Origin: an uncultured Gammaproteobacteria bacterium
Lineage (GTDB): Bacteria > Patescibacteriota > Microgenomatia > CAYSOG01
Direction: 5' to 3'
DNA length: 64,000 nucleotides
NCBI GenBank assembly: GCA_964432675.1
Contig: CAYSOG010000001.1
Coordinates: forward strand, 4,523-68,522
The notes under the pieces were generated by a model, which saw only the letters and a program-made list of their open reading frames with translations, did no database searches and had not been told where the DNA came from. Shown here in pieces: positions 3,107 through 28,433 of this stretch. The position numbers and the translations under genes are program-made. Within the stretch, counting starts at the first letter, position 1. Every line of letters starts with the position of its first letter.

Positions 3107-3847
3107 TTATGCAAGCCGCTTTTCCTTGGCAATAACGCAATTTGGACAACGGAGAGAATTTGCTGCCAAGATAATTGCTGGATCTTTTGAAGCCTGGATT
3201 ATAATCCGGTCGTTTTCTTTTAATCTTGTTACATTATGATTATTGTCGATAGATAGAATGGCTGGGCCCCGGACGATGGTTACAATAATTTGATCCTTAT
3301 CGGTAAAAAATAACGGGTCTAAGGGGTGGACAGGATTATTGAAGGCTAAACCGAATCCTTGGTCGAACATTTGGCGTGTAATGCTATGGAAGTAAGCGGT
3401 TGAGCCAAATGGCGTGGCTGCAACTACACCGTCACCAATAATAATTTCATTGTCCTGAACCGTTTGTCCGTTAAGCAAGACAGAAAGCCGAACTGCATGA
3501 ATTGGTAGCTCATTTGTTATGACAATTTCATTTAAGGCATGTTGGACTTTACCTGCAAAATCAACAGCTAGTTTTTGGTAGGCCTTCTTTTCTAATTGAT
3601 TCTTAGCGAGCGCTTGTATCAAAACTTCATTGGCATGTTCGGCACATTTGACACAAGTAGCACTGTCCCTGATGGGTAATTTTGGTATACCCGGATACTC
3701 TTGTTCAGAAGCCAATAGCGTTCCATCCCCACCATAAGATATTACGATATCCGGGTTATTTTGGACGACCATTAGCCCTTCAGCTTTAACTAAGTTTTCT
3801 AATGACAGGGCATTTTTACCGTAAAGAAGAATATTCATCTTTGTCAT
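3107..3847 (-). CDS. nadK: NAD+ kinase
   Basis: GGDGTLL motif, NE/D short motif and the conserved C-terminal DGxxxxTPxGSTAYxxSAGG-like segment (ATPFGSTAYFHS). Start trimmed to MTKMNILLYG. Confidence 0.85.
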   Translation of the reverse strand: MTKMNILLYGKNALSLENLVKAEGLMVVQNNPDIVISYGGDGTLLASEQEYPGIPKLPIRDSATCVKCAEHANEVLIQALAKNQLEKKAYQKLAVDFAGKVQHALNEIVITNELPIHAVRLSVLLNGQTVQDNEIIIGDGVVAATPFGSTAYFHSITRQMFDQGFGLAFNNPVHPLDPLFFTDKDQIIVTIVRGPAILSIDNNHNVTRLKENDRIIIQASKDPAIILAANSLRCPNCVIAKEKRLA

Positions 3848-26455: not shown

Positions 26456-26526
26456 TGCGGGATCGTCTAATGGTAGGACACATGCCTCTGGAGCATGGTA
26501 TCTAGGTCCGAATCCTAGTCCCGCAG
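26456..26526 (+). tRNA. tRNA-Gln (anticodon CUG), no encoded 3' CCA
   Basis: Manual fold: acceptor TGCGGGA/TCCCGCA with U1-A72 and G73 (typical tRNA-Gln identity). D-arm GTCT/GGAC. Anticodon stem CATGC/GCATG with loop CUCUGGA (CUG at 34-36). T-arm CTAGG-TCCGAAT-CCTAG. 3' end followed by CTCG. Confidence 0.7.
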
Positions 26527-26596
26527 CTCGTGTTCTGCCAGATAGACGATGTGGGAACTTCCCTATCGTAATTTTGTAATCTGATATACTCTATTT

Positions 26597-27064
26597 ATGT
26601 ATAATCACGCTCCAAACGAGTATATGTGCCCGCTTTGTTTACTTGGAAAAGAAGCATATAAGTCACCGCTTGTTGTTGTTCCAGACGACGTTGTTTTACG
26701 GACAGAAAAGATAACGGCATTTATTTCTTCTAAATGGTGGCCAAATAATAAAGGCCATATCATTATTATCCCAAATGCTCATTTTGAGAATGTATATGAT
26801 ATTGAGACAGATTATCTTCATGAAATTGCTGACACCTCAAAGAAAATGGCCATTGCGATAAGGAAAGCATATGGTTGTGATGGAATAACTATTCGGCAAC
26901 ACAATGAGCCAGCAGGAAGTCAAGATGTTTGGCATTACCACATGCATGTTATCCCACGGTATACAAATGACGACTTTTATCGAACTGATGCGATTAAAGG
27001 TTGGATTAATCCGAAAGAAAGAAAAGTTTATGCAGATAAAATTAGAAAAGTATTATCTCGATAA
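26597..27064 (+). CDS. HIT (histidine triad) family hydrolase
   Basis: C-terminal HxHxHxx motif (VWHYHMHVIPR) and the HIT fold core (KGHIIIIPNAHFENVYD). Confidence 0.8.
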   Translation: MYNHAPNEYMCPLCLLGKEAYKSPLVVVPDDVVLRTEKITAFISSKWWPNNKGHIIIIPNAHFENVYDIETDYLHEIADTSKKMAIAIRKAYGCDGITIRQHNEPAGSQDVWHYHMHVIPRYTNDDFYRTDAIKGWINPKERKVYADKIRKVLSR

Positions 27065-27095
27065 AAAGTTCCCACATAGTCAACCAGTGCCAGCT
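27062..27095. repeat. Direct repeat copy A (34 bp, perfect) ataaaaagttcccacatagtcaaccagtgccagct
   Basis: Identical to 27413-27446. Begins within the HIT stop codon. Confidence 0.85.
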
Positions 27096-27137
27096 CAGCT
27101 TGTGCTTAGCGTATGATTTAAGAAATATCCTACTATT

Positions 27138-27398
27138 TTATTTGAACCAGTGGAAAAAGGCAAAGAGGTTACTAATTATAACTAAGGCACCTACTAACAA
27201 CAAGATTACAACTCCAGCAATAATGCTTACTGTTAGCGAGGTCATTTTGGCCTTATAAAATTGGTCGCCAACTTTGGTAAGGGTAGTAACTTTGCCATTT
27301 TGTTGATCGTGTAGTGATTTGAGTGCTATATAACCAATTACAAGAACGAAGATAAAACTCAAGATTACAGAAATAGGTATTTGAGGGTCATTACCCAT
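27138..27398 (-). CDS. Small two-TM membrane protein (86 aa) bracketed by the direct repeats
   Basis: Two hydrophobic helices. This is the only gene between the repeat copies. Confidence 0.45.
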   Translation of the reverse strand: MGNDPQIPISVILSFIFVLVIGYIALKSLHDQQNGKVTTLTKVGDQFYKAKMTSLTVSIIAGVVILLLVGALVIISNLFAFFHWFK

Positions 27399-27412
27399 AC
27401 TTACATGGTAGC

Positions 27413-27446
27413 ATAAAAAGTTCCCACATAGTCAACCAGTGCCAGC
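27413..27446. repeat. Direct repeat copy B (34 bp, perfect)
   Basis: Identical to 27062-27095. Confidence 0.85.
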
Positions 27447-27490
27447 TTTGATCCGCTTGCAATTTTGATAGGAAAGTCGGTCTCCGTTAT

Positions 27491-27874
27491 TTGAGTTTAC
27501 AAGATCATCCAGGTAAGTCGTTAGACGAATTGATAGAAATTATTACTAAAACCGGAACTGATAGGTACAATATTTCACGAAAAATGGCTGTTGCACATGA
27601 TTTTTATTCTGATAAAGGGATTGAAATTTTTGCCGTACCAGCAGAAGTGAACAAAGAACTGGACATATCCGCAGAAGCGATCCAAGATTTTTATGAGGGT
27701 GCATTAAAAGATAGAGGATATTCATTAAAGATTGATCTAGTAGTTATTTATGACCTAGAACAGCTTGAACTTATTCCTATAAAATATGACGACGGTATTG
27801 GCAAAGATGCATATAAATTTCGGTATCCCAGCAGAAAAAGTGATGCGGTGTTAGGATTTATTAAAATTACATAA
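27491..27874 (+). CDS. Hypothetical protein (TTG start)
   Basis: Frame opens at 27452. TTG 27491 lies 12 nt after AGGAAAG. 127 aa, no family recognised. Confidence 0.35.
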   Translation: MSLQDHPGKSLDELIEIITKTGTDRYNISRKMAVAHDFYSDKGIEIFAVPAEVNKELDISAEAIQDFYEGALKDRGYSLKIDLVVIYDLEQLELIPIKYDDGIGKDAYKFRYPSRKSDAVLGFIKIT

Positions 27875-27944
27875 ATAAGGTCTAACTCTGTCAATAAATC
27901 CAGCTGAAAAGACAATAGACAAATGGTGATAAAATAAAGTCATT

Positions 27945-28361
27945 ATGGATAAAAAAGCAATTACTATTGAAGCTTTGATAAATGCGCCGATTGAAAAAGT
28001 ATGGGAATATTGGAATGAGCCTGATCATATTACGAAATGGGCTTTTGCTGCTGATGACTGGGAAGCGACAAAGGCAGAAAATGATTTACGAGTTGGCGGA
28101 AAGTTTAAAACGGAGATGGCGGCAAAAGACAAAAGTGCAGGTTTTGATTTTGCAGGCACATACAGTATTGTGAAGGAACACGAGCTTATCGAATATGACC
28201 TTGATGATGGCCGGCATGTAAAGGAAGAATTTACCAAAGAACCGGATGGTGTAAAGGTAGTTATAATCTTTGAGCCGGAAAATGAAAACTCAGAAGAAAT
28301 GCAAAAAAGTGGTTGGCAGGCAATTCTCAATAACTTCAAGAAATACACCGAAAGTAATTAA
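27945..28361 (+). CDS. SRPBCC superfamily protein (AHSA1/activator-of-Hsp90-ATPase-like domain)
   Basis: ITIEALINAPIEKVWEYWNEPDHITKWAF......GGKFKTEMAAKD...FAGTYSIVKEHELIEY is the AHSA1/SRPBCC pattern. Confidence 0.7.
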   Translation: MDKKAITIEALINAPIEKVWEYWNEPDHITKWAFAADDWEATKAENDLRVGGKFKTEMAAKDKSAGFDFAGTYSIVKEHELIEYDLDDGRHVKEEFTKEPDGVKVVIIFEPENENSEEMQKSGWQAILNNFKKYTESN

Positions 28362-28433
28362 CTGCATACTATCTCCCATTACAAACTAATTTATCTATTG
28401 CATTACTCCTTTTTTCTATGGTACAAATAGCTC

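Follow-up and report, generated by a model that had tools for sequence, protein, structure and literature searches.

Oriented repeats of about 34 nt downstream of tRNA-Gln as candidate boundaries of single-gene cassettes in a low-GC islet

Organization of the Locus

The DNA analyzed here is a stretch of 64,000 nucleotides (contig CAYSOG010000001.1, positions 4,523 to 68,522), referred to below as the window, which contains a perfect 35-nt direct repeat, ATAAAAAGTTCCCACATAGTCAACCAGTGCCAGCT, close to the genes of a tRNA-Gln and a HIT-family hydrolase (Table 1). The two copies, recovered by both repeat and DNA searches, lie at 27061-27095 and 27413-27447, with their starts 352 bp apart, and none of 100 dinucleotide-preserving shuffles held even one match to the 35-nt sequence. 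A preliminary description of this DNA had quoted the 35-letter string correctly, with coordinates that omitted a terminal base of each copy, and its observation that the repeat overlaps the stop codon of the HIT gene is also borne out, given that the TAA at 27062-27064 falls within copy 1. The array in the window is short, and consists of the tRNA-Gln, the HIT gene with its repeat, a reversed ORFan (an open reading frame, or ORF, lacking homologues) with its repeat, and a 5'-truncated gene.

Table 1. Features of the repeat locus in the window (GC, guanine plus cytosine content; TM, transmembrane segment).
Feature	Position	Strand	Basis or remark
tRNA-Gln(CTG), proposed anchor heading the cassette region	26456..26527	+	ARAGORN; Rfam tRNA, 58 bits
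Degenerate inverted repeat copy, between tRNA-Gln and HIT	26531..26565	-	Inverted match and nhmmer
HIT-family hydrolase gene	26597..27064	+	Pfam HIT, E=2e-16
Low-GC islet, GC 0.33-0.39 vs 0.44-0.48 in the flanks	26600..28400	.	Composition profile
Repeat copy 1, type A	27061..27095	+	Holds the HIT stop codon
Putative cassette body between the copies, 317 bp	27096..27412	.	GC 0.356 vs 0.42 in the window
ORFan, 86 aa, two hydrophobic stretches (two-TM), reversed relative to the repeats	27138..27398	-	
Repeat copy 2, type A	27413..27447	+	Perfect match to copy 1
5'-truncated gene, ~170-aa family of unknown function	27452..27874	+	Homologue comparison, tblastn
Possible fourth copy, strongly degenerate, weak call, ATAAATAAGGTCTAACTCTGTCAATAAATCCAGCT	27869..27903	+	Lies over the truncated gene's stop codon

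The ORFan is the only sizeable ORF between the two copies, as had been claimed. It looks coding, because its codon usage gives a positive log-odds relative to the window's own genes (+0.23 per codon) and its frame beats the other five. No homologue other than the protein itself was found among 5.8e9 proteins, or by a full phmmer search of 1.84e9 cluster representatives, and Pfam returned a sub-threshold match to DUF1634 (E=0.0023). Look-ups of the exact ORFan and HIT proteins recovered no contig on record, while a scan of genome contigs with the HIT protein found no relative closer than 53%.

The gene that follows copy 2 is annotated as an ORF of 127 aa with a TTG start (27491-27874), whereas its 15 homologues are 170-183 aa long and have in common a conserved N-terminal region of approximately 45 residues, which is absent from this ORF. 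The homology begins at around residue 34 of the homologues, at window position 27461 (tblastn range 27461-27473), that is, no more than 13 nt past the end of copy 2, and the first ~33 residues are missing. The sequence has an in-frame TGA at 27449-27451, just after the repeat, and tblastn did not find the missing N-terminus anywhere in the 64-kb window. The contexts of homologues of this ~170-aa family (L042-L046) have no repeats, and provide no ancestral arrangement for comparison. As the edge of copy 2 is joined here to the interior of a gene, an exchange between two repeats cannot have made this junction.

All these genes lie in a low-GC islet, which starts at the 3' end of the tRNA-Gln and spans the HIT gene, the ORFan, the truncated gene, and an AHSA1/SRPBCC gene. 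The nhmmer searches of the window returned the two perfect copies and one degenerate inverted copy only. The latter is detected as a 16-nt inverted match with one mismatch (26545-26560), for which no shuffle gave three matches, and by a broad nhmmer profile at 26536-26560 (E=9.5e-4). The candidate fourth copy ends in CCAGCT, and by global alignment it ranks among the best 0.8% of random 36-mers from the window; it went unreported by nhmmer and is not statistically secure.

A Dispersed Family of Oriented Repeats

The repeat pair of the window belongs to a family of dispersed, strictly oriented, and unstructured repeats of about 34 nt, which divide single-gene or toxin-antitoxin modules downstream of tRNA-Gln. 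This description is well supported by a series of comparison loci (L016 and others numbered in the same way), which are short-read metagenome contigs. An exact 29-nt core was found in 20 metagenome contigs, in which both flanks are unrelated when aligned, and the 34-mer recurs without change in 20 or more other contigs. The perfect identity of the two copies in the window, taken in the preliminary description as a sign of recent local origin, cannot therefore date a local event. In the family consensus, aTAAaAAGTTCCCACATAGTCAACCAGTGCCAGC, conservation rises sharply at aTAAa and falls just as sharply after ..CCAGC.

The preliminary description had proposed a search for further copies of the 34-mer, and had regarded the presence of the repeat in numerous unrelated intergenic regions, combined with the absence of any empty-site variant in related strains, as the mark of a generic repeat family with no cassette role. 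The first half of this combination is what was found.

The arrays have a density of approximately one copy per intergenic gap, or per toxin-antitoxin pair. Locus L016, for example, has eight copies of the type seen in the window (type A) on the plus strand within 6.9 kb, while L036 has six copies and L029 has five, one of which follows a Phd/ParE toxin-antitoxin pair (nhmmer). Two or three copies are present in each of L018, L019, L020, L024, L027, and L030. The cargo, which is typical of accessory cassettes, includes glyoxalase/PhnB, methyltransferases, an acetyltransferase, RibD_C, HIT, AHSA1, Fic, SIR2-like proteins, toxin-antitoxin pairs, and many unknowns.

A second type of repeat (type B, AAAACGGTTCTAATGTCGTCTAATACCCACAGC), identical to type A at 16 of 29 positions, is interleaved with it in the same arrays (L016 1991-2023 and 3777-3808; L017 9979-10011 and 11612-11644), and brings the total counted in L016 to 11 copies. 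A 181-aa gene is present in L016 as a 96%-identical duplicate (127-738 and 2027-2639), one member of which follows a type A copy, and the other, a type B copy. Regulatory genes are also found in these arrays (L016 2698-4224 and L017 10600-11547), encoding an IrrE/M78 peptidase-like protein, a LuxR-type helix-turn-helix (HTH) protein, an excisionase-like HTH_17 protein, and a sigma-70 region-4 protein. Genes of this kind are typical of integrated mobile elements, and this longest array is without an integrase.

Two motifs recur directly to the right of the repeat, TACGATTTAGCCTCAA..TTGAC and AAATAGTCTTATAGTTTGAC (L016 1168-1195, L029 565-590, L030 ~1290-1311, L027 128-150, and L026 ~1140-1167), and the second of these also follows the tRNA-Gln gene itself in L026. 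These motifs may belong to the site, as its right arm, or may be promoter elements in common.

The L036 copies share genome-specific substitutions, while loci with an identical 34-mer have tRNA-Gln genes that are only 59-85% identical to one another, which means that clearly different lineages carry the same repeat. This combination of homogeneity within one genome and identity across lineages is the pattern of an actively spread or homogenized element, rather than that of a passively conserved motif. The closest named relatives of the HIT protein, at approximately 50% identity, are from Levybacteria and a "Patescibacteria group", and one repeat contig comes from a 0.1-um groundwater fraction. 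The organisms carrying the repeat are probably members of the Candidate Phyla Radiation (CPR)/Patescibacteria, although their placement is not established.

Collections of plasmids and phages contained no match to the repeat, and the exact 24-mer was unmatched in IMG/VR, where a degenerate family pattern gave two matches, one of them inside an ORF (L047), both of which were judged to be due to chance. In the window and L036, Rfam 15 returned the tRNA only and nothing at the repeats, either at gathering thresholds or at E<=10. The literal repeat string had no match on either strand in the literature searched, where keywords for CPR with integrons, cassettes, or repeats also gave nothing relevant.

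Polarity and Lack of Structure

In approximately 23 non-redundant gaps between co-directional genes, the repeat has the same orientation as the genes, and no more than two matches, both weak, are anti-oriented. No repeat locus contains confident copies in opposite orientations. The repeat is also found in nine divergent and approximately 12 convergent gaps, pairing around reversed genes, and five such genes lie between two co-oriented copies, that is, the ORFan of the window, L018 5457-6356, L019 116-775, L020 92-769, and the OmdA gene of L036. Because the reversed genes keep co-oriented flanking copies, the polarity belongs to the DNA of the array, rather than to the transcript of each gene.

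A repeat search found no internal inverted repeat or dyad in the sequence, and DNA folds of both strands around four copies gave z values of -1.7 to +0.1, mostly near 0, with no stem involving the repeat. The promoter and terminator scan detected no terminator-like site (a GC-rich hairpin followed by a T-tract) at either copy in the window. Readings of the repeat as an attC-like site, a REP-like sequence (repetitive extragenic palindrome), or an intrinsic terminator are excluded, given the lack of a dyad, a fold, and a terminator-like site.

A number of other candidate identities were considered and rejected. A REP or a transposable element of the miniature inverted-repeat type (MITE) would have a palindromic hairpin, terminal inverted repeats, or a target-site duplication, none of which is present. 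The copies are spaced at 344-4000 nt, with genes in the intervals, unlike the 25-50-nt spacers of a clustered regularly interspaced short palindromic repeat (CRISPR) array. A sigma-54 site (TGGCAC-N5-TTGC) on the reverse strand is contradicted, by eye, by the spacing and a poor fit of the -12 box, and by a strand that is wrong in relation to the genes. A coded peptide (KKFPHSQPVPA) was also rejected, as the variation between copies is not biased toward synonymous changes and most copies are outside ORFs.

Module Boundaries at the Repeat Edge

The HIT gene provides an example of a module found in different neighborhoods. Its orthologues in L036 and L038 have nucleotide identities of 84% and 76%, respectively, and neighbors that are entirely different. 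The homology begins approximately 10-15 nt upstream of the ATG and extends as far as the repeat's 3' end; it stops between 0 and +4 nt from ..CAGC in each pair compared (window/L036, window/L038, and L036/L038). The HIT stop codon lies inside the repeat in all three loci, and L036 has a copy on either side of its HIT gene. Copy 1 of the window is orthologous to the repeat that follows HIT in L036 and L038, and predates the arrangement of the window. In the comparison of the 3' end of the HIT gene among related genomes, which had been proposed in the preliminary description, the repeat is present after HIT in these two loci and missing from this position in further orthologues of 73-77% aa identity (L041 5430-5690, L049 2890-3010, and L050 640-725). 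In L041, only TAAAAAG is left at the HIT stop, and L050 has a degenerate repeat copy upstream of HIT.

Similar boundaries are found elsewhere. A gene encoding a 75-aa PnuC-like protein is 100% identical, together with its repeat, between L027 and L016/L017, with divergence directly after CCAGC. Loci L016 and L017 are, in turn, 100% identical over 5.7 kb rightwards from CAGC/TACGATT (the slash marks the junction), while the genes to the left of this point differ, and the repeat is of type A in L016 and of type B in L017.

The overlap between the repeat and a stop codon is also found beyond the HIT module. It was recorded in copy 1 of the window, L031, L024, and at positions 3144 and 4222 of L016, where the TAA of the repeat has changed to TGA and still acts as a stop.

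Relationship with tRNA-Gln

The tRNA-Gln of the window has a 3' end (..TAGTCCCGCAGC) similar to the 3' part of the repeat. Of the eight tRNAs found in loci with the repeat, six are Gln, and all six, identified by ARAGORN in the window, L023, L026, L031, L034, and L038, are upstream of the repeat and co-oriented with it. The less diverged variants of L036, ATAACTAGTTCGAACATAGTCCAAAATGGTCAGC and ATAAAAAGTTCGAACGTAGTCCAGGATGGCCAGC, can be aligned with the tRNA-Gln 3' end, between the T-loop and ..GCAGC, if a single 6-nt insertion is allowed, at a level not expected by chance (shuffle p<0.0005) and well above the scores of the Lys, Leu, Gly, Phe, and Val tRNAs. Type A is tied to these variants through the A-like copies of L036, which have 79-94% identity and belong to the same array. 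All members of the family are 6 nt longer than the matching tRNA segment, and type A is identical to the tRNA end at approximately 17 of 29 positions; type B is more similar to tRNA-Gln than type A at both ends. The CAGC end is common to all repeat types and to tRNA-Gln. The family appears, from these alignments, to descend from the 3' end of tRNA-Gln (T-loop to ..CAGC), with the insertion of 6 nt.

A second line of evidence comes from the sequences to the right of the tRNA. The 17-nt flank that follows the tRNA-Gln 3' end in L026, AAATAGTCTTATAGTTT, is the flank that follows a repeat in L027, and the HIT gene comes after tRNA-Gln in the window and L038, and after a repeat in L036. Given this common flank and the placement of HIT, the tRNA end and the repeat behave as interchangeable left partners.

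The other genes found after tRNA-Gln include a small GIY-YIG protein (L023 and L031) and further non-recombinase genes. These stand-alone genes of the GIY-YIG nuclease domain, of approximately 90 aa, directly adjoin the tRNA-Gln (L023 2200-2472 and 2655-2924; L031 2639-2908; L034 ~2650-2999), and in L041 (771-1031) one is located among tRNA genes. In L023, L031, and L034, palindromic stretches of TTCGAC ... GTCGAA are found in the first ~90 nt after the tRNA-Gln, and may represent another family of repeats or hairpins.

Comparison with Known Systems

In terms of its organization, the system seems to work most like the cassette array of an integron. As in the attC arrays of chromosomal integrons, or the clusters of attC sites lacking integron-integrases (CALINs), co-oriented sites lie at the 3' end of modules of one gene or one toxin-antitoxin pair, and this arrangement of sites, all on one strand, separates single-gene cassettes in both L016 (11 copies) and L029 (five). 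Occasional reversed cassettes keep the polarity of the sites, the stop codon is often within the site, the sites are homogeneous in each genome, and the HIT gene is found in different arrays; the cargo is likewise small, and comprises accessory, detoxification, toxin-antitoxin, and unknown genes. The differences are that the site is a 34-nt asymmetric and unstructured sequence with no R''-L''/L'-R' palindrome and no fold, that no intI was found, that the modules seem to carry their own promoters, that a tRNA-Gln takes the place of attI at the head of the array, and that an identical site is shared by diverged lineages. The array is not an integron, because the repeat failed the attC hairpin test and no intI was found among the proteins covered.

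Islands anchored at tRNA genes provide the other close parallel. In the islands of Prochlorococcus seeded by tycheposons, a partial copy of the tRNA is all that parts tandem elements, and older events have left additional partial tRNAs (bioRxiv 10.1101/2020.12.28.424599). The islet of the window is similar to such islands, in that the 3' end of a tRNA is the point from which a variable region of low GC extends, and direct repeats related to the tRNA end, and co-oriented with the tRNA, are scattered through it. In this case, however, the repeats are not copies of the host tRNA end, but form a diverged family with a shared 6-nt insertion, they bound single genes, at intervals of 0.35-1 kb, in place of multi-kb elements, and the same repeat stands beside different tRNA-Gln sequences. 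Furthermore, no integrase or remnant was seen, and the genes that follow tRNA-Gln in the window and related loci, where such islands would have an integrase next to the tRNA, are non-recombinase genes.

The resemblance to the REP and bacterial interspersed mosaic elements (BIME), MITEs, and other short intergenic repeats is that the sequence is short, multi-copy, strictly intergenic, often placed after stop codons, and homogeneous within the genome. These elements differ from the present repeat, which has no palindrome, terminal inverted repeats, or target duplication, and which has a strict single orientation and edges that match exchangeable gene modules. In the shufflon, the sfx sites recognized by Rci demonstrate that a tyrosine recombinase can use one-armed conserved sites that lack dyad symmetry. 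These sites act in inverted pairs, however, and invert segments, whereas the copies described here are direct, and would be expected to delete or insert.

Proposed Cassette Boundaries and Alternative Roles

The comparisons show an oriented repeat family that is placed at the edges of modules, lies beside a truncated gene in the window, and is linked with tRNA-Gln, and from these findings site-specific recombination at the repeat is inferred. On balance, the reading that is favored, with some reservation, is that the repeat marks att-like limits of cassettes within a small islet of low GC, for which tRNA-Gln is the anchor, and that the 352-bp unit is one ORFan cassette. The repeat would serve for recombination in the manner of an att site, with modules joined at its 3' end (CAGC/) or directly beside it, and the tRNA-Gln would offer, in its own 3' end, the equivalent partner site that heads the array. 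Modules would behave as cassettes that can be gained, swapped, and lost, and recombination between the two direct copies of the window would excise a circle of 352 bp, leaving the HIT gene, one repeat, and the truncated gene. A RecA-dependent exchange between identical copies could add to the same outcomes.

This reading retains one part of the site-specific insertion proposed in the preliminary description, that is, a mini-cassette bounded by recombination sites, in favor of which stand the co-oriented one-gene arrays, the reversed genes, the homology that ends at the 3' edge of the repeat, and the truncated neighbor. The other part, the duplication of an att site by one local insertion, did not hold. 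The suggestion of an on/off switch for the small gene is unsupported, as recombination between two direct copies would delete the gene, rather than invert it.

A number of points weigh against a cassette boundary. Pfam found no recombinase or transposase in 26 proteins of the window and 30 of the related loci, in a search that left out approximately 47 ORFs of the window, 30 kb of the source contig, and most of the contig flanks, and none is present in the precomputed Pfam lists of 10 further loci. The repeat has neither dyad symmetry nor a fold (z about 0), and core sites of tyrosine or serine recombinases without either are unusual. Many copies are followed, by eye, by hexamers similar to -35 and -10 boxes, which may indicate a role in transcription. 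The type A repeat of the window, when compared alone with tRNA-Gln, has no significant similarity (p=0.63), so that the link runs through the intermediate variants. Homologous recombination between identical copies would also leave sharp boundaries at the repeat edge, and a defined junction is argued only by the junction between types A and B and by the truncated gene, with one case each. The mosaic comparisons are based on short-read metagenome contigs, in which a 34-nt repeat could seed chimeric joins. Finally, neither an empty-site variant nor a circular form of the cassette of the window was observed, in collections that contain no close relative of this locus.

The main rival is an expression signal, that is, a protein-bound punctuation of transcription, a terminator or insulator, or an upstream promoter or operator element, placed at gene boundaries, with the mosaics arising secondarily through RecA between identical copies. 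This explanation is unlikely. It agrees with a repeat that is always intergenic, that often lies over the stop codon of the upstream gene, and that is commonly located 20-120 nt upstream of a co-oriented start, with the promoter-like hexamers in between, and an identity of 35 bp is long enough for an occasional homologous exchange, which would also break at the repeat edge. A purely 3' or 5' signal of a gene would not be expected in the divergent and convergent gaps, however, nor would array-oriented copies on both sides of the five reversed genes, and a hairpin or T-tract is lacking. An identity of 34/34 across lineages with diverged tRNA genes is, moreover, far above what is usual for binding sites, and homologous exchange leaves both the junction of a repeat edge with a gene interior and that between types A and B unexplained.

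Two further explanations are less likely than transcriptional punctuation. The repeat may itself be a non-autonomous mobile element of 34 nt, similar to a REP or a MITE, copied in trans by a single-stranded DNA transposase and inserted one way after stop codons, with its direction set by replication. The many identical copies in unrelated contexts and lineages, the homogeneity within genomes, the uniform polarity in every locus, the conserved left TAA that is often a stop codon, and the HIT orthologues of L041 and L049 that lack the repeat would all be consistent with such an element, which is nevertheless rather improbable. The repeat has no terminal inverted repeats, no hairpin of the HUH/RAYT type (RAYT, REP-associated tyrosine transposase), and no target-site duplication, and no pair of orthologous sites was found to differ by just 34 nt. 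It has also been kept with HIT in three diverged lineages, moving with this gene to different neighborhoods, and its association with tRNA-Gln and tRNA-like sequence fit an att origin better. An assembly artefact, by which the 352-bp unit or the metagenome mosaic junctions would be chimeric joins at a short repeat, has very little probability, even though short reads underlie all the assemblies, and repeats are well known as points of misassembly. The 34 nt are shorter than typical reads and final k-mers, the codon usage of the ORFan is coding-like in the window's own dialect, and matching architectures were recovered from independent samples and assemblers (L016/L017, L029=L035, L023=L032, and L038=L039=L040). 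The explanation closest to the preliminary description, that a single recent local event made both copies, either through an insertion with att duplication or as the remnant of a tandem duplication, has also been largely refuted and is now highly improbable. Such an event would predict two perfectly identical copies around one gene, as observed here at a distance of 352 bp, but an equally perfect sequence is found in at least 20 unrelated places, copy 1 is older than the arrangement, and the identity ends at 35 nt, with nothing else in the unit duplicated.

Implications for Gene Flow

The CPR/Patescibacteria have tiny genomes with few recognized mobile elements, and their acquisition and exchange of accessory genes are poorly understood. 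To our knowledge, no integrons are known in this group. A broader and more tentative possibility, which goes beyond the cassette boundary itself and is rather less probable than not, is that the repeats belong to an undescribed integron-like system in CPR/Patescibacteria-type bacteria. In such a system, self-promoted single-gene modules would be captured, shuffled, and passed between distant lineages at an unstructured 34-nt site derived from the 3' end of tRNA-Gln, with the tRNA-Gln gene as the entry site, and possibly through a non-canonical recombinase.

For the annotation of the locus, the results show that the ORF of 127 aa following copy 2 is truncated, and place the 86-aa ORFan in a cassette-like slot, rather than in a locally duplicated segment. 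A conserved and oriented boundary repeat that sorts single accessory genes into interchangeable modules beside tRNA-Gln would represent a concrete route of gene flow in the CPR/Patescibacteria, for cargo that, in the loci analyzed, includes ORFans, toxin-antitoxin pairs, detoxification enzymes, and proteins of the Fic and SIR2-like kinds. The 34-mer would also provide a simple handle both for cataloguing the flexible gene pool of these bacteria in metagenomes and for hunting the enzyme.

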